A stretch of DNA of 41,169 bases from a virus. Below the pieces are notes generated by a model, which made no database searches, was not told where the DNA came from, and worked only from the letters and a program-made list of their open reading frames with translations. Below, one piece after another: positions 25,031 to 35,168 of the stretch. Position numbers and translations under genes: made by a program. The stretch's first letter is position 1; every line of letters starts with the position of its first letter. Where the stretch lies: the IMG/VR virus record IMGVR_UViG_3300029535_000013, one strand, 5' to 3'.

Positions 25031-26392
25031 ATGGCAAGTTTTGATGAGATCGTGAGCAAAATGACGGCAGCCATCAAGGGCGTCCGTGAGGCTGTGCTGG
25101 GCAAGGATGTGCGCGAGTTTATCGCCAGCGGCTATGAGAGCGTGCTGGATGCTTATAAGCAGCTTGATGGGAATGCGAAGCAGCTAAAGGAAAATGTGGC
25201 TGATATAAATAGTAGATTTTCAAGATACAATCTTTTTGATAAAGATACTGCAAGCATTGTAGATATAATGTGCAATGATTCTCTTGTATTTATTTCCCCT
25301 GGTGTGCAGTCTATAATTTGGAAATGCGAGCCAAATACTACATACACAATCTCGTGGACTGGTATTAGCGGTAACAACAGATACATTATTTATACTTCGA
25401 AGGAAAAGCCAATTGTTGATAAATTATCAAAGGCATTGCGAAAAATAGAGATGTCTAATACTGTTAGTGGTTCAAACAGACATTATACAACAATTACAAC
25501 AACGAGCGAAGAAAACTATCTCCTGCTGTATTTCTGGATGTACGCAAGTGGAGGTAATGCTACACTTGACACAATGCAGATTTCAACTGGAAATCGGTTG
25601 CTCGATTATGTTCCTTATTCGGACTACGAAATGCCAAATTTGAAACTTGTGCCACACCAGTTTGATGATATCACTATTAATATAACAAACTGCACTGATG
25701 AAATGGCAAACCTGTTGGGTCGCCGAAATCTTGGTGCATTGGACAAGGGATATATTTGCCTTGTTGCTGATGATGGATATGCAAAAGTCAGCAACGTTAC
25801 ATTTCCGATAGCTAAAGAAAAGAATATCCCAATCACACTTGCATTATGGACAGATTCTGAAGTTGTTACAAATCCAACATTGCTTGCAGAGCTAAGAACA
25901 ATGATTGCTAATAACAATATCGGAATATGCCAGCATGGTGTAGGGCGTTTTACAGATTATTCGCCTAAAGAACTTTACAATTATCTTATCAGCGAAAAAG
26001 ACAAATGGGTAAATCTTTCGCTAAATGTAGCGGGAGTTGCATATCCCAATCATAGCAGAAACGAGCAAGTTAGAACTATTTGCGGTGCATTATACGGTGT
26101 ATGTTGCAGTGGTGGTCCGACACGCCCTATGGTTTACTCGCATGACACAAACGGCGCAAGGTCAAATATTTTTGATTTATACAGGATATCATTATACAGC
26201 GAGAATGAAAACTATCTAAAGGGCGCTTGCGATTTTGCAAACTCAAATAAAAAATTGGTAATTATCTTTTGGCATGACAGTGATATTTATGGTGACGATG
26301 ACCAAATTAACAAATTGAAGAACGTAATAGATTATGCGAAAACTATCGGACTTACATTTGTAAATGTAGGAGATATTCCACTAATTAACTAA
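25031..26392 (+). CDS. receptor-binding / tail fibre protein with C-terminal polysaccharide deacetylase-like domain
   Basis: The GC-rich N-terminal anchor (about aa 1-55) is followed by an AT-rich body. Motifs ICLVADDGY, CQHG, VAYPNH and VIIFWHD resemble a NodB/CE4 fold. Confidence 0.65.
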   Translation: MASFDEIVSKMTAAIKGVREAVLGKDVREFIASGYESVLDAYKQLDGNAKQLKENVADINSRFSRYNLFDKDTASIVDIMCNDSLVFISPGVQSIIWKCEPNTTYTISWTGISGNNRYIIYTSKEKPIVDKLSKALRKIEMSNTVSGSNRHYTTITTTSEENYLLLYFWMYASGGNATLDTMQISTGNRLLDYVPYSDYEMPNLKLVPHQFDDITINITNCTDEMANLLGRRNLGALDKGYICLVADDGYAKVSNVTFPIAKEKNIPITLALWTDSEVVTNPTLLAELRTMIANNNIGICQHGVGRFTDYSPKELYNYLISEKDKWVNLSLNVAGVAYPNHSRNEQVRTICGALYGVCCSGGPTRPMVYSHDTNGARSNIFDLYRISLYSENENYLKGACDFANSNKKLVIIFWHDSDIYGDDDQINKLKNVIDYAKTIGLTFVNVGDIPLIN

Positions 26393-27841: not shown

Positions 27842-28072
27842 ATGGCAAGCACTACATACGAGCAAACGCCACGCTATTATTATGATCAGCGTGCGTACCC
27901 GATTTTGTGGCCCGCAGTGTGTGACCATTTTGCCAACGGCGGCAAAATGGGACATTACCGTGCCGTGACCGTTCGAGTGCGCAACGCCGGACAGCTGCCG
28001 CAGCCTTTTTGGCTCGGTGCTGCCTGTGGCGGCGGCTCGTGTAGTGCTGCCCGCTTCGCTGCAAGGACTTGA
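27842..28072 (+). CDS. hypothetical protein
   Basis: AAGGAG RBS. 76 aa. Overlaps the next ORF in another frame. Confidence 0.4.
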   Translation: MASTTYEQTPRYYYDQRAYPILWPAVCDHFANGGKMGHYRAVTVRVRNAGQLPQPFWLGAACGGGSCSAARFAART

Positions 28073-28082
28073 CCGACAGCAA

Positions 28083-28262
28083 ATGACCGCCGCAATCAAA
28101 AACGCACCGCTTGGGAGGGTAGACCGTAAGATAGCCTTACTGCGGTACGTTGAGCGGCTCCCGCTGCCGGACATTGCAGCACAGACCCATTACAGCCGGA
28201 CGGCGATAGGCTACCGGCTGAAAGTTATTGATGAAAAGCTAGACGAAAGGAGCTCACCGTGA
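28083..28262 (+). CDS. small sigma-70 region-4-like HTH protein
   Basis: DRKIALLRYVERLPLPDIAAQTHYSRTAIGYRLKVIDEKL. The start is uncertain (GTG 28017 or ATG 28083) and the RBS is weak. Confidence 0.45.
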   Translation: MTAAIKNAPLGRVDRKIALLRYVERLPLPDIAAQTHYSRTAIGYRLKVIDEKLDERSSP

Positions 28263-28402
28263 ACCTCGAAAATGTTCCGACCGCAAATCTTGTTACAGAG
28301 CTTCGCAAACGCGAGGGCGTGGAAACGACCATTGTCGAGCCATATCAGGACGCAGAGGTCAGCGTCAACGGCCCTGCGCTGGTTCTTGTCGTGACGGATT
28401 GA
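28259..28402 (+). CDS. small conserved phage protein (BC1881-like, 47 aa)
   Basis: GTGA overlap start. The product ...LVTELRKREGVETTIVEPYQDAEVSVNGPALVLVVTD resembles a small family common in Firmicute phages. Below the ORF-track size cut-off. Confidence 0.5.
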   Translation: MNLENVPTANLVTELRKREGVETTIVEPYQDAEVSVNGPALVLVVTD

Positions 28403-28507
28403 TTGTGGTATAATAACATCAACAAATCCACCCGGCCTATCGAAGAAGCGCATTAGGGTGGATATTTGTACAACTGGCCAGTCTCCCGCGCATCCAGCGT
28501 GAGACGT

Positions 28508-28549
28508 AAAAAGCCCCGGTGCTCTGTTTGGAGCATCGGGGCTTTTTTT
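28508..28549. terminator. bidirectional intrinsic terminator
   Basis: AAAAA, then the 12-bp stem GCCCCGGTGCTC/GAGCATCGGGGC with loop TGTTTG, then TTTTTTT. It lies between convergent genes. Confidence 0.8.
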
Positions 28550-28551
28550 GT

Positions 28552-28989
28552 TTATTTGAGATATTCCCGCAGCGCCCGCAGGATGAGTTCGTTTCGGCTG
28601 CACTGCTCGGCATCTATCCGGGATGTCATCTTTTCGGCAAGCGGACCCGGGATGTAGATCGTTGCCTGTACATCCTTTGCGCCCTCGCTGCCAGCACCAA
28701 AGATGGCGTCGCACTGCTCCTCGCCGAGGTGCTCAAACGCCCACTTTTGCGCGATCTCATCGGAGAGAGGCACAATCTGCTCACCGGGAGCCGTCCATCC
28801 GTCACTACGTCGGACGGCGTATACAGTGGCTGCGTTGCCCATGCCGTAGATAAACCATTTGCCCGCCTTAGTGCGGTAAAGAGTCTCCTCACAGTGGTAA
28901 AAGCTGGTGTAGTCCTGGTCAGACTCCCAGTGTCCCATTTTTTTTGCGGTATCGGTGTCATAGCGAGAGCCGTTGATTATTTTGCGCAT
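28552..28989 (-). CDS. hypothetical protein with C-terminal ribbon-helix-helix (CopG/Arc-like) domain
   Basis: The C-terminus ATIYIPGPLAEKMTSRIDAEQCSRNELILRALREYLK fits the RHH pattern. The N-terminal 100 aa are of unknown family. Confidence 0.55.
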   Translation of the reverse strand: MRKIINGSRYDTDTAKKMGHWESDQDYTSFYHCEETLYRTKAGKWFIYGMGNAATVYAVRRSDGWTAPGEQIVPLSDEIAQKWAFEHLGEEQCDAIFGAGSEGAKDVQATIYIPGPLAEKMTSRIDAEQCSRNELILRALREYLK

Positions 28990-30086
28990 GGTGTATCCTC
29001 CGTGTTATCAAAGTTATCGTCGTCTGCGGTTTTGGGCGTGGGAAGCCCGGCCAGCTGCCACCCTTTATAGCTCGATGCCGGACGTGATTTTAAGCGAGTC
29101 CCCCGGATCGATGTGGCAATCGCCCTAAATCCTGCTGCGATCCTTTTTGCGGCAACGTCCTCTGGGATGTCGTCGTCAAAAAACAGCAAATGATTTTGAC
29201 GAGCCCAGTCTAACAGATTGACCGCCTTGTGAGTGTTGCCGTCCGGGTCAATCAACCTCCAAACGAGAGCCTCGCGATTTTGTGGGCCTTTTTGGCCTCC
29301 CGGCAGTTTTAGAGCCGCCGAAACACCTACTGACTGCAATGTCTGCATATGCGCCTGGGTCTCCGGGTCTGCTGTCCGGCGGGCCTTTGCCTCATCCGAC
29401 CATGCGGCATTGTTGATATGACCATTTTTTAGCCGCAGCGCAGCGCCGCATTTTTTTGAGCAGCATTGCTGGTTTACCTCACTGGGAGAGGCATAAAAAG
29501 GCTTGCCGCAGATGGCGCAGATCTTTTTTAGTGACTTGCCTTTATGGTCGGCAGTCTCCTGATCATACGGAGGCTGCTTTGAGGGCGCGACGGGTTGCTG
29601 GACGCGTCCGTCTTTTCTGTGCCGTCCTCGCTGGCAGCCGCAGCTCCTTGATAGTTTTACGGAGCTGTATGACATAACTCTATCATTGCCGCAAAGAGCG
29701 CAATGCACGACGACCATTGTGCATTTGTAGCCATCAGCCATGATTTTAGCCGGTGCCGTGCCGACGATGGAGAGATTGCCGAATGTTTTGCCAATCAGCC
29801 GGTCAGCAAGCGGCTCTTTGGGAGGCTTGGCGTCCGGCATCTTGGGCTTCGGAAGACCCGCAAGCGTCCACCCTTTATAAGTGCGCAGCCCGTGAGGTCT
29901 TTCCGGGTGCCGGAGCGCGTACCCCATCATCTGGACGCCCTCGGAGATCCGGGATGCGGCGTTGTCCGGTGCGGCATCCGGGAAAAACAATTTTACATTG
30001 TCCTGGCTCCACTTTGCCAGATCATCGACCTCGTGGCGCTCGCCATCCGGGCCGATGAGCACCCATGCGTACCCATGGGTGCTCAT
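28977..30086 (-). CDS. internally duplicated DNA-binding-like protein with central zinc-finger motifs
   Basis: aa 6-82 and 274-352 are clear repeats (W-L-I-PDG...LFF...YKGW-LAGLP-PK). The centre has CALCGN...SCGC and CAICGKPF...CCSKKCG. No nuclease motif seen. Confidence 0.6.
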   Translation of the reverse strand: MSTHGYAWVLIGPDGERHEVDDLAKWSQDNVKLFFPDAAPDNAASRISEGVQMMGYALRHPERPHGLRTYKGWTLAGLPKPKMPDAKPPKEPLADRLIGKTFGNLSIVGTAPAKIMADGYKCTMVVVHCALCGNDRVMSYSSVKLSRSCGCQRGRHRKDGRVQQPVAPSKQPPYDQETADHKGKSLKKICAICGKPFYASPSEVNQQCCSKKCGAALRLKNGHINNAAWSDEAKARRTADPETQAHMQTLQSVGVSAALKLPGGQKGPQNREALVWRLIDPDGNTHKAVNLLDWARQNHLLFFDDDIPEDVAAKRIAAGFRAIATSIRGTRLKSRPASSYKGWQLAGLPTPKTADDDNFDNTEDTPCAK

Positions 30087-30358
30087 TGCATCACCTCGAT
30101 GTCACAATCGACGGTGCAGTTTGGAGTCACGACATTGCCGTCCTCATCGACGGTGTAGTCGATGTCGCTGTTGGTGCCGTCAGCGTAGCTCTTGGCGTAA
30201 TCGGCCAGATACTCGACGTCCTCGACCTTGTAAGCGTCCAGATCGGCGTTGTACTCGAGGCCACCGGCCTCGAAGAAATCAGCCTCAAAGTGTGCGCCGT
30301 TGGCGGTATCGGTCATCTCGATGCTCAGGAGCTTGCTGCCATCATAAAACTTAGTCAT
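30083..30358 (-). CDS. small highly acidic protein (91 aa)
   Basis: 22 D/E against 4 K and 0 R by hand count. GGAGGA lies 8 nt upstream. It is the first gene after the consensus promoter. Confidence 0.6.
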   Translation of the reverse strand: MTKFYDGSKLLSIEMTDTANGAHFEADFFEAGGLEYNADLDAYKVEDVEYLADYAKSYADGTNSDIDYTVDEDGNVVTPNCTVDCDIEVMQ

Positions 30359-30404
30359 TGTCGTCGTCCTCCATCTGTTGTTTGGTGTTCCTCTTGACGC
30401 TCTT

Positions 30405-30433
30405 ATTATAGCATAAATAATTTATTTTGTCAA
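30405..30433 (-). promoter_or_regulatory. perfect consensus sigma-70-type promoter (TTGACA-17-TATAAT) for the minus-strand operon
   Basis: The minus strand reads TTGACA (30433-30428), a 17-nt spacer, then TATAAT (30410-30405). Confidence 0.75.
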
Positions 30434-30467
30434 CATTAAATTTGAGAAAATAAATTATTTATGCTAT
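30408..30467. repeat. perfect 21-bp inverted repeat (candidate operator) with 18-nt centre
   Basis: atagcataaataatttatttt at 30408-30428 is the exact reverse complement of 30447-30467. Confidence 0.9.
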
Positions 30468-30470
30468 CTT
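30442..30470 (+). promoter_or_regulatory. mirrored plus-strand promoter TTGAGA-17-TATCTT
   Basis: It sits symmetrically to the minus-strand promoter, and its spacer is the right arm of the inverted repeat. Confidence 0.45.
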
Positions 30471-30548
30471 TTTTGTCCTTCGTTGTGCGTTCGTTGTCTC
30501 TTGGCTCTCCCTAAAAAGGTAAACTGAGCGCAAAGGGAGGGAAGCCCC

Positions 30549-30926
30549 ATGTGGCACAAGTTTAACCCTAACCCCCACGGGAGCAGCGTCGGAGACTGTG
30601 CTGTGCGGGCGGTAGCAGCGGCCACCGGCCAGAGCTGGGAGCAAGCGTATATTGCACTTGCTCTCACTGGTTACGCCCTCGGCGATATGCCCAGCGCAAA
30701 CCGCACATGGGGCGCATACCTCCAAAAGCAGGGTTACAAGCGCCGAATGGTGGAAGCGGACTGCGCCACCTGTTACACCGTGGCAGATTTTGCCCGGGAG
30801 TACCCGCACGGCGTGTATGTACTGGGCTGCTCCGGCCACGTTCTGGCCGTCATCGACGGCAAGTGGTGGGACAGCTGGGACAGCGGCGCGGAATGCCCGA
30901 TCTACTACTGGTATAAGGAGGACTAA
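30549..30926 (+). CDS. hypothetical protein, possible papain-like Cys/His fold
   Basis: AAAGGGAGGGAAG RBS. Contains VGDCAVRAV and later GCSGHVLAVIDGKWWDSWDS. A peptidase role is inference only. Confidence 0.55.
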   Translation: MWHKFNPNPHGSSVGDCAVRAVAAATGQSWEQAYIALALTGYALGDMPSANRTWGAYLQKQGYKRRMVEADCATCYTVADFAREYPHGVYVLGCSGHVLAVIDGKWWDSWDSGAECPIYYWYKED

Positions 30927-34034: not shown

Positions 34035-35168
34035 TCAATACTTCATCTTTTGCATTTCCCGCAACAGATAATCCGGGTCATTGTGGGAGACGTACTTGTT
34101 GGCCGTGGTGGAGAAATTTTTGTGACCCAAGATGGCCTGTACGGCGGTCTTTTCCAGGCCGCACTCCACCATCTTGCTACTGGCCGTGTGGCGCAGCGTA
34201 TGCGGATGCACCCCCTCTATGTGGCACTCCTGCATCAAGGCCCGAAACTTTGTAGCCACGTTGCGCTTGTCCAGCTTTGTACCGGCTTTGGACGGTATCA
34301 GCCACTCACAGCCGCTGTCAAGCATCCAAAAGGCAATGATTTTATAAATGGGGTCCAAAATAGGGATAATGCGGTTTTTGCCCGCCTCGGTCTTTTCGCC
34401 GCCCTGCATATACCGCTCTTTTAGATGCACATCGTCGCAGCGCATGGAGAGCAGCTCATCGATACGCATACCGGTGTAGAGCAGCACCATTGCGATTTGT
34501 GCTGTCTGCCCAAGCTTCGGGTCGTCTTGTCGGCTGCTTATCTGCTCGATCTCCTGAGCGGTCAAGGTTCGCTCTGCCTTGCCTGTAGCCGCTGGGAGCT
34601 GCAAGAGCATGGCATAGTTTTTGTTTATGATGTCCTGAGCCATTGCCCACTCACAGATCTGGCTGAAAAGTGTGCGCTGCTTTTCGCAGGAGCTGCGGGA
34701 GAGGCCCTTTTCCACCATCTGGTCAATCACCTGTTGATAGTCTGCGGCTTTTAAGTCCCGGAGCTGTCGGTCATACAGCGGCGCAGCCTTTGCATAGGCC
34801 AGCTCATAACCCTTTTTCATATCAGTGCTGAGCTTGTCAAATTTGGGCTGCGCTTTCCATTGGGCATAGGCATCCGCAAAAGTACATTTCAGACGCGCTG
34901 CGGGGGTGTTCTGGGCGTTGTAAGCGTCCAGTGCTTGTACTGCTTCACCCGGCGTCGCAAACGTCCCCAGAACGTCTCGCTTGGCTGTCAGGGCCACATA
35001 CGGTTTTGACCTCGTCCCGCTCAACTTATATACACTGCCGCTGCCCTTTGGGCGGCGGCGCTTTTTTCTTTGCTGCGGGGCGGCTTCGGGCTGCTTCTTT
35101 CCGCAGTATGGGCAAAAAGATGCATCATCCGGTATTTCCCGACGGCAGCAGGCGCGAATGCACTTCAA
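34035..35168 (-). CDS. int: tyrosine integrase with N-terminal zinc ribbon
   Basis: HPHTLRHTASS...LGHKNFSTTANKYVH-type catalytic region. The N-terminus reads CCRREIPDDASFCPYCG. Confidence 0.9.
   Translation of the reverse strand: MKCIRACCRREIPDDASFCPYCGKKQPEAAPQQRKKRRRPKGSGSVYKLSGTRSKPYVALTAKRDVLGTFATPGEAVQALDAYNAQNTPAARLKCTFADAYAQWKAQPKFDKLSTDMKKGYELAYAKAAPLYDRQLRDLKAADYQQVIDQMVEKGLSRSSCEKQRTLFSQICEWAMAQDIINKNYAMLLQLPAATGKAERTLTAQEIEQISSRQDDPKLGQTAQIAMVLLYTGMRIDELLSMRCDDVHLKERYMQGGEKTEAGKNRIIPILDPIYKIIAFWMLDSGCEWLIPSKAGTKLDKRNVATKFRALMQECHIEGVHPHTLRHTASSKMVECGLEKTAVQAILGHKNFSTTANKYVSHNDPDYLLREMQKMKY

Follow-up and report, generated by a model that had tools for sequence, protein, structure and literature searches.

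Introduction

AcrVA3 is an anti-CRISPR (Acr) protein, acting against immunity based on short palindromic repeats that are clustered and regularly interspaced (CRISPR), and was reportedly described from Moraxella bovoculi by Marino and co-workers in 2018. The structure of AcrVA3 (9KJA) revealed a new fold whose nearest relative by structure is the part of I-HmuI that binds DNA, and the protein was reported not to bind Cas12 directly and to bind and cleave double-stranded DNA (dsDNA) in vitro; the conserved residues are N44, L45, R50, L55, D60, N76, W92, K93 and W95 (Han et al., FASEB J 2026, PMC13001698). The orthologue AcrVA3.1 is credited with partial inhibition of type I-C in a passage of a review (PMC7556299). 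Here a computational analysis is reported of an operon of three genes (g1, g2 and g3) in a 41,169-nucleotide stretch of viral DNA, IMG/VR record IMGVR_UViG_3300029535_000013, the whole of which is referred to as the window. The product of g2 contains two copies of a domain remotely related to AcrVA3 and that of g3 ends in an RHH (ribbon-helix-helix) domain. The locus is best read, with modest confidence and from sequence comparison, as an anti-defence cassette of the type formed by acr genes and their anti-CRISPR-associated (aca) regulators, carried by a temperate siphophage of Faecalibacterium prausnitzii in an accessory region with the lysis genes on one side and the integrase and attachment (att) end on the other.

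In the Acr-Aca fusions AcrIIA1, AcrIIA13-15, AcrIF24 and AcrIF25, an effector and an autoregulatory DNA-binding domain are joined in one polypeptide. Most fused Acr-Aca proteins use a helix-turn-helix (HTH). AcrIF25 has an RHH, and the RHH-type repressor Aca14, which binds an AT-rich inverted repeat at its promoter, is often found with AcrVA3 (bioRxiv 10.64898/2026.07.27.740549). The other described systems with which the operon shares components are the HNH homing endonucleases, among them I-HmuI (PDB 1U3E), and the type II toxin-antitoxin modules (MazE/EndoAI, ParD and CopG-like).

Results

Organization of the operon and its promoter

With its ~41 kb the window represents the genome of a temperate, siphophage-like virus, in which the cassette is oriented opposite to the plus-strand genes on both sides. 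The genes for the GH25 endolysin and the holin form one flank; the other consists of successive plus-strand genes without assigned function and then the tyrosine integrase/att end. In an integrated relative (L001) bacterial genes start ~4 kb past the cassette, and two of these genes are exact matches to F. prausnitzii RefSeq proteins, which identifies F. prausnitzii as the host. No isolated and annotated phage related to the window was found, a nucleotide search of GenBank phages returning only unannotated human faecal contigs. The three open reading frames (ORFs) of the cassette lie exactly where an earlier reading of the letters of the window, hereafter the original prediction, had placed them on the opposite strand.

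30083-30358, minus strand: g1, 91-aa very acidic ORF, apparently exchangeable cargo
28977-30086, minus strand: g2, 369-aa basic ORF (isoelectric point (pI) 9.3) in the order AcrVA3-like domain, zinc ribbon, zinc ribbon, AcrVA3-like domain; putative effector
28552-28989, minus strand: g3, 145-aa ORF, last in the operon
30368-30372, minus strand: Shine-Dalgarno sequence GGAGG, 9 nt 5' of the g1 ATG, as read from the sequence

The frames of g1 and g2 overlap in an ATGA and those of g2 and g3 by 13 nt, overlaps from which the three genes are predicted to be translationally coupled. All three proteins are already present in the non-redundant protein database as DAK93661-3, two labelled 'hypothetical' and g2 labelled 'YacG/DUF329' or 'DUF2256'. 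Searches of Pfam, NCBIfam and PADLOC gave no usable match for g1, g2 or g3, and an Rfam scan of 28300-30700 gave no credible match.

The original prediction also proposed a perfect TTGACA-17-TATAAT promoter and a bidirectional terminator at the end of the operon, both of which were recovered, together with a long palindrome over the promoter.

30405-30433, minus strand: sigma-70 promoter; -35 TTGACA at 30433-30428, 17-nt spacer, extended -10 TG at 30413-30412, -10 TATAAT at 30410-30405
30408-30467: 60-bp palindrome, putative operator region; arms 30408-30433 and 30442-30467
30415-30427: putative core operator O1, a 13-bp 6-1-6 palindrome AAATAA-W-TTATTT within the promoter spacer
30448-30460: putative core operator O2, the same AAATAA-W-TTATTT palindrome upstream of O1
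28508-28547: intrinsic terminator hairpin with an 18-bp stem, a T-run on the plus strand and TTTTT on the minus strand

The promoter matches the consensus at 12 of 12 positions and is the sole site with no more than one mismatch in the 41-kb window, where 0.04 would be expected by chance. The palindrome arms, of 26 nt each, are 96% complementary and separated by 8 nt, and the promoter-proximal arm spans the -35 through the first 3 nt of the -10. The AAATAA-W-TTATTT sequence occurs twice in the whole window, at O1 and O2 (0.04 expected), with centres 33 bp apart or approximately three helical turns. The terminator serves both the operon and the convergent plus-strand genes. Promoter, palindrome and terminator are all conserved among relatives.

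AcrVA3-like domains of g2

A profile of the g2 family built from 55 sequences matched one solved structure in the PDB, 9kja_A (111 aa), with E=3.1e-18 over 104 positions, profile positions 61-164 aligning with residues 2-107 of 111. The chain is deposited as 'HNH endonuclease' in an entry titled 'Anti-CRISPR protein AcrVA3'. The match was also obtained with g2 alone (phmmer against 9kja_A, E=1.5e-3; pairwise BLASTP against AcrVA3, 27% identity and E=2e-8). The AlphaFold2 (AF2) model of residues 181-369, with a predicted local distance difference test score (pLDDT) of 91.5, retrieved 9KJA as the top PDB match in Foldseek with a probability of 0.97 and a template-modelling (TM) score of 0.60 on the target, the E-value being only 0.04; the second match, a weak one, was I-HmuI. 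In the model the C-terminal domain runs in the order helix, two strands, two helices, strand and helix, in keeping with the AcrVA3 fold of four helices and a mixed sheet. Among the conserved residues of AcrVA3, N44, L45, R50, L55, D60, K93 and W95 are kept in the g2 family, W92 is replaced by Tyr, and N76 is aligned with Ala. The AcrVA3-like region of g2 is basic (pI 10.1), which fits DNA binding.

30077-29832, minus strand: g2 residues 4-85, N-terminal AcrVA3-like domain, internal duplicate of the C-terminal copy
29801-29631, minus strand: g2 residues 96-152, zinc-ribbon module LxGxTFGxL...CxxCG...SCGC with C129, C132, C149 and C151
29531-29439, minus strand: g2 residues 186-216, treble-clef/FCS-type zinc ribbon CxxCGKxF...PS...CSxxC with C190, C193, C208/209 and C213
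29336-29049, minus strand: g2 residues 251-346, C-terminal AcrVA3-like domain with the motifs W.L.DP.G, NL..WAR, LFF and YKGW

Between residues 4-85 and residues 283-366 the identity is 40% (E=6e-19), and the N-terminal domain gives a weak direct alignment to AcrVA3. The C-terminal domain and its N-terminal duplicate compare, in sequence and in predicted fold, as remote members of the AcrVA3 family. The original prediction had described a module present in two copies that flank cysteine motifs, reminiscent of the DNA-binding modules of homing endonucleases and accompanied by no nuclease motif. Each element of that description is upheld: the copies enclose two four-cysteine clusters, the module has the fold of AcrVA3 for which the DNA-binding part of I-HmuI is the closest published structural neighbour, and neither a nuclease domain in Pfam nor an HNH motif was found in g2. 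An active homing endonuclease was rejected as the identity of g2 because no nuclease motif is present. AcrIIA11, an anti-CRISPR of gut Lachnospiraceae phages, was also considered and rejected, the sequence in the eLife 2019 supplement being unrelated.

A word-indexed search with g2 returned 16 relatives, and an exhaustive profile search returned 473 clusters (50% identity) at E<=1e-10, most of 160-260 aa. The core common to the relatives consists of the CxxCGKxF...PS...CSxxC zinc ribbon, a helical linker and an AcrVA3-like domain of ~100 aa. The cysteine columns of this second ribbon (residues 186-216) are invariant in the family and it gives weak YacG/DUF2116/NinG-like matches. The usual form in Firmicutes is a protein of 160-260 aa with the zinc ribbon and a single AcrVA3-like domain, so that g2, with two of each, is atypical of its family. 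Some members also carry, in the same polypeptide, an AP2, an HTH_23/sigma-70 region 4 or an HTH_17 domain. The PHROG families 1271 and 374, annotated 'HNH endonuclease', match g2 in the zinc-ribbon part only (residues 95-221), and it is through this part that 46 of the 55 family members match PHROG 1271.

The likeness of g2 to AcrVA3 comprises the domain family, the fold and most of the conserved surface residues. The differences are that AcrVA3 is a 111-aa single-domain monomer whereas g2, of 369 aa, contains that domain twice and has a pair of zinc ribbons as well, for which reason g2 is not a plain AcrVA3, and that the host of the g2 phage is reported with type I-C and I-E systems rather than V-A. 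The zinc-ribbon and AcrVA3-like modules are likewise shared with HNH-annotated proteins; g2 differs from the HNH homing endonucleases in having no HNH or other nuclease motif and in residing in an accessory cassette, not within a host gene or intron.

Domains of g3

28989-28696, minus strand: g3 residues 1-98, conserved N-terminal domain of six strands and two helices, AF2 pLDDT >90
28677-28555, minus strand: g3 residues 105-145, C-terminal RHH, putative Aca-like repressor domain

The original prediction of a CopG/Arc-type RHH tail on g3 agrees with the family profile, which matched the Bacillus subtilis RHH antitoxin EndoAI/MazE (4me7) with E=1.4e-4 and other antitoxins lower in the list, and with the AF2 model, in which the RHH helices comprise residues 114-127 and 131-143. 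PHROGs gave a weak 'Arc-like repressor' match, and the Pfam match is sub-threshold. The N-terminal domain gave no significant match to folds in the PDB, the best being Pur-alpha-like with E of 0.2-0.5, and no family in Pfam or PHROG; its viral matches are all uncharacterised.

Relatives of g3 were found in 131 viral and 21 bacterial genome loci. Isolated phages have them too, for example Lactobacillus phage JNU_P7, where the gene is again placed between a GH25 lysin and an integrase. The N-terminal domain ranges over Firmicutes, Proteobacteria, Bacteroidales and an archaeal virus and is far more widespread than the cassette. It is also encountered without the RHH in several settings, including L099:5998-6303 and L104:5998-6312, and the sources of such forms are an Acetatifactor metagenome-assembled genome (MAG), Microvirga, Paracoccus phage Shpa, a Methanomicrobiales virus and a 5.5-kb 'bajarodino virus'. 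In the Acetatifactor MAG the gene adjoins two genes that are TniB/TniQ-like by eye. The N-terminal domain could be an effector fused to its own regulator, a sensor, or a domain that binds g2.

Promoter repeats and RHH subtypes

In nearly every operon that closes with a g3-family gene there is a near-consensus promoter, with one copy of a repeat inside the spacer and a second upstream of the -35. The sequence of the repeat is specific to the RHH subtype, as given below by the sequence of the RHH beta-strand.

QATIYIP or QATVYIP: promoter repeat AAATAA(A/T)TTATTT (for QATIYIP, AAATAAATTATTT)
QATVRIP: promoter repeat GAATCTTTTTTGC or GCAAAAATGATTC
KVTIYLP: promoter repeat AAATACGGTATTT
PVAAYVP: promoter repeat AAAAATATTT
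AMFSLS: promoter repeat ACATTTATATA

Subtypes beyond these five also have promoter repeats of their own. The gene caller used on the related loci, which is based on codon usage, mis-sets some start codons and as a result some promoters were missed in this survey. In locus L038 a terminator after g3 is followed by an identical second promoter and repeat that precede a homologue of g1, and in L043 a second copy of the promoter-operator stands before other cargo genes. These arrangements, with that of L001 described below, show that the promoter-operator is a portable unit that is duplicated before neighbouring cargo genes. Co-variation of repeat and RHH, together with the duplication, is what one would expect to see if g3 is a repressor that binds the repeat as its operator. 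The role of RHH autoregulator that the original prediction offered g3 gains comparative support from the change of the promoter repeats with RHH subtype, and it is quite likely that g3 autoregulates the operon.

A purine-rich leader motif, ~CA..(T/C)AAGG(G/A)A(C/A)AC.AAAC, lies just 3' of the -10 in the window (30359-30404) and in the leaders of L007, L038, L043, L083 and others. It is kept across RHH subfamilies having unlike operators, and may be an RNA-level or start-site element.

Conserved frame and changing cargo in related loci

As the seed of a locus search the broad alignment (A3) proved too divergent and a narrower one (A7) worked. Gene maps were drawn for ~110 related loci. In these loci g3 is constant, almost always near lysis or integrase genes, and the genes upstream of it differ from locus to locus. 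The genes beside it include g1, a complete, truncated or replaced g2, one for a 134-aa basic protein, and numerous others for small, often acidic proteins that are unrelated. In many related phages g2 is absent or truncated, and in some loci the partner of g3 is instead an unrelated protein of 75, 111 or 99 aa, or there is none. Fusion of g2 to g3 in one 508-aa ORF is seen in most close relatives (L015-L035), further fused forms having 240 aa (L020-L023) or 408 aa (L014, L024 and L025); a difference of 2 nt at the junction separates the split arrangement of the window from the fused one.

Most relatives carry a fourth gene between the promoter and g1, encoding the 134-aa basic protein, which has a cysteine-rich tail ending CPRCHTYCYGDCMA. 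In L001-L004 one promoter-operator copy precedes the 134-aa gene and another precedes g1 (L001:9062-9727, compared with window 30360-30480). The window, which does not have the 134-aa gene, looks like the product of a deletion between two such copies.

The comparison shows a conserved frame of g3 and the promoter-operator in which g1 and g2 are exchangeable cargo. The original prediction had treated the three genes as a unit and proposed a survey of their co-occurrence. In that survey g3 proved to be the anchor of more than 100 loci, and it is kept together with the promoter-operator; the trio as such is not fixed, in that the g1 and g2 partners vary and the fourth gene and g2-g3 fusions are common.

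Composition and relatives of g1

The composition of g1 (22 D/E, 4 K and no R) is exactly that given in the original prediction, and its pI is 4.05. Its homologues form 66 clusters, none annotated. No relative was found in Pfam, PHROG or PADLOC, and the family profile had no relative in the PDB. The homologue in L038-L050 is located downstream of g3 behind its own promoter-operator copy. An acidic mimic of DNA is a possible role for g1, suggested by the composition as its sole basis.

Anti-CRISPR homologues in related loci

In L062 and L065-L069 the gene directly downstream of the g3 relative, of 327 aa (L065:1544-2527), is homologous to AcrVA2 (7ci1), with E=3.4e-6 in a collinear alignment and the same length. 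Divergent AcrVA3-like genes adjoin integrases in short operons that have consensus promoters and share cargo families with the g3 loci. In place of g3 these operons have an Xre-type HTH protein of 108-126 aa (GLSQ..A.RFCIPRRTVEDW), and the promoter spacer has the repeat CCACG...CGTGG.

L113-L117, L140 and L162-L166; also L020, L023, L047, L048 and L084: loci with the Xre-type HTH family

The family looks like an alternative Aca-type regulator, and its occurrence in place of g3 with a repeat of its own indicates that the regulators are exchangeable. In L138-L176 divergent AcrVA3-like genes recur with the small cargo families F86, F22, F83 and F36 (our numbering) and with g1, near integrases, which suggests that phages of gut Firmicutes draw on a common pool of candidate anti-defence genes.

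Other features of the window

An 81-aa ORF at 28017-28262 on the plus strand, directly before the shared terminator, has a weak Sigma70_r4_2-like HTH (E=0.002), and the small genes in this slot differ among relatives. The tyrosine integrase, at 34035-35168 on the minus strand, has an N-terminal zinc ribbon. The segment 25001-26000, within the ORF 25031-26392 (a late gene of 453 aa, downstream of the tail genes), has a GC content of 0.39 compared with ~0.55 elsewhere; relatives have other genes at this position, and the segment is probably a swapped receptor-binding module.

Discussion

The operon resembles acr-aca operons in four respects. A remote homologue of the validated anti-CRISPR AcrVA3 is present (g2), a gene for a regulator of DNA-binding type (g3, with an RHH) is last in the operon, inverted repeats overlap the promoter with arms covering the -35 and spacer, and the regulator gene is kept while the neighbouring cargo varies. 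The likeness extends to Aca14 operons, which have an RHH gene at the 3' end of a short operon, the RHH at the C-terminus of the protein, an AT-rich inverted repeat over the promoter with the motif recurring before neighbouring operons, and an association with AcrVA3-family genes. Aca14 differs in having 67 aa with a helical N-terminal extension, compared with 145 aa and a beta-rich domain of ~100 aa in g3; the similarity is confined to the RHH, and the operator of the g3 loci differs in sequence and covers chiefly the -35 and spacer, the -10 to a lesser extent. On account of this size and architecture, and of similarity at the level of the RHH only, g3 is not demonstrably a member of the Aca14 family. 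The layout of g3 and the g2-g3 fusions recall the Acr-Aca fusions, with an effector and an autoregulatory DNA-binding domain in one polypeptide, with the difference that the N-terminal domain of g3 has no sequence or fold similarity to any solved structure. Overall, the evidence favours the acr/aca-like reading that the original prediction listed first over its two alternatives, a toxin-antitoxin-like module and an exclusion system. For g2 itself the chance of being a true CRISPR inhibitor is put, by analogy with AcrVA3, somewhat short of even.

Under the acr-aca-type reading, the consensus sigma-70 promoter would fire upon entry of the phage DNA and give a burst of one mRNA for g1, g2 and g3. 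By analogy with AcrVA3, the g2 array would act on DNA and not on a Cas protein, blunting interference by the CRISPR types reported for the host, I-C and I-E. As g3 accumulates it would dimerise through the C-terminal RHH, and the dimers would occupy O1 in the promoter spacer and O2 33 bp upstream and repress the promoter, which would be shut off once product is sufficient and kept low in the lysogen. What we infer is DNA binding and repression by g3, and whatever activity against CRISPR g1, g2 or the N-terminal domain of g3 may have.

Several points weigh against this reading. The sequence link of g2 to AcrVA3 is remote (27% identity), and neither g1 nor the N-terminal domain of g3 has a relative of known function. 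The AcrVA3-like domain is common to HNH-annotated proteins and elsewhere fused to AP2 or HTH domains, and so may be a general DNA-binding module and not a signature of an Acr. AcrVA3 was weak and toxic in vivo in Pseudomonas aeruginosa according to a passage in a review (PMC7556299), and its dsDNA-cleaving mechanism is unsettled, resting on one in-vitro study (PMC13001698). The CRISPR systems reported for F. prausnitzii are of types I-C and I-E, type V-A going unmentioned in that report (PMC11307328). The RHH of g3 matched Pfam RHH_1 with E=0.006, below the curated cut-off, and aligned with Aca14 in hhalign at a probability of 74% and E=2.8e-5 over 37 columns with 27% identity, a similarity at the superfamily level only. 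Finally, a position between lysis genes and att is equally typical of morons for lysogenic conversion or exclusion.

This last point is the starting place for an explanation in which the locus is a moron expressed from the prophage for exclusion or defence, g2 binding and possibly cleaving incoming foreign DNA and g3 setting the level of expression. The lysis-att position, occupied with an own promoter and terminator, is the classic site of conversion and exclusion genes, the cargo is hypervariable in the manner of defence hotspots, and AcrVA3 is reported to degrade dsDNA in vitro (PMC13001698) and, in a passage of a review, to be toxic (PMC7556299). However, none of the three proteins was matched by a defence model in PADLOC, g2 has no recognisable nuclease motif, and the only relatives with tested functions are anti-CRISPRs, namely AcrVA3 and the AcrVA2 found beside g3 homologues. 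A consensus promoter wrapped in operators also fits a burst followed by shut-off better than steady expression from a prophage, and an exclusion moron is considered unlikely.

Alternatively, g2 may be a domesticated DNA-binding array of a homing endonuclease that serves as a sequence-specific regulator or factor in the phage's own biology and has no role against defence. Consistent with this are the matches of 46 of 55 family members to the 'HNH endonuclease' PHROG 1271, the fusion of the domain elsewhere to AP2, sigma-70 region 4/HTH_23 and HTH_17, and the standing of the I-HmuI DNA-binding part as the closest published neighbour of AcrVA3 and as the second, weak Foldseek match of g2. Residence in a swappable cassette, with small acidic proteins and in related loci an AcrVA2-like gene, is nonetheless atypical of core regulators, and the absence or truncation of g2 in many related phages indicates that it is dispensable; we regard a domesticated array as rather improbable. 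A toxin-antitoxin or addiction module, with g2 as DNA-damaging toxin and g3 as RHH antitoxin and operon repressor, would account for the RHH being most similar to antitoxins (EndoAI/MazE), the toxicity of AcrVA3 in P. aeruginosa noted in a passage of a review (PMC7556299), and the presumed autoregulation and overlapping, translationally coupled frames familiar from type II systems, but it is rejected as the main explanation, and is very improbable, because the partner of g3 varies (g2, the unrelated 75-, 111- and 99-aa proteins, or none) and fusions with the supposed 'toxin' are common, being found in most relatives, and further because the RHH of g3 is C-terminal with a conserved folded domain in place of a toxin-binding tail and no toxin family was matched in Pfam or PADLOC.

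Within the acr-aca-type reading a bolder form may be entertained tentatively, although we consider it doubtful. The N-terminal domain of g3 would itself be a new and widespread effector, either an anti-defence protein or a defence sensor, tied to its own RHH autoregulator; g3 would mark anti-defence islands across gut phages, and the AcrVA3 fold would be a module derived from homing endonucleases that defeats CRISPR through DNA and not through Cas.

Earlier work has described both Aca regulators with an RHH and the link between these and AcrVA3 (bioRxiv 10.64898/2026.07.27.740549). What is new here is that the regulator bears a conserved N-terminal domain, that the AcrVA3 domain is duplicated and accompanied by zinc ribbons, that effector and regulator are often fused, and that the setting is a phage of F. 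prausnitzii. Among human gut commensals this species ranks with the most abundant, and the literature searched yielded no anti-CRISPR ascribed to its phages. The acr-aca-type cassette would leave the existing paradigm unchanged and is unsurprising in kind, its use being that of an anchor for discovery. If the reading is true, an AcrVA3-type effector would be present in phages of a host with I-C and I-E systems, which bears on the real targets of AcrVA3-like proteins. The AcrVA3 fold, with 473 clusters at E<=1e-10, would be far commoner in phages of gut Firmicutes than its one example from Moraxella implies, and would travel in fusions with zinc-ribbon, AP2 and HTH domains. The g3 family, with promoter-operators specific to each subtype, would then provide a guilt-by-association handle for new anti-defence genes in gut viromes, the candidates by association with g3 being g1, the basic protein of 134 aa and the families of cargo F22, F83 and F86.

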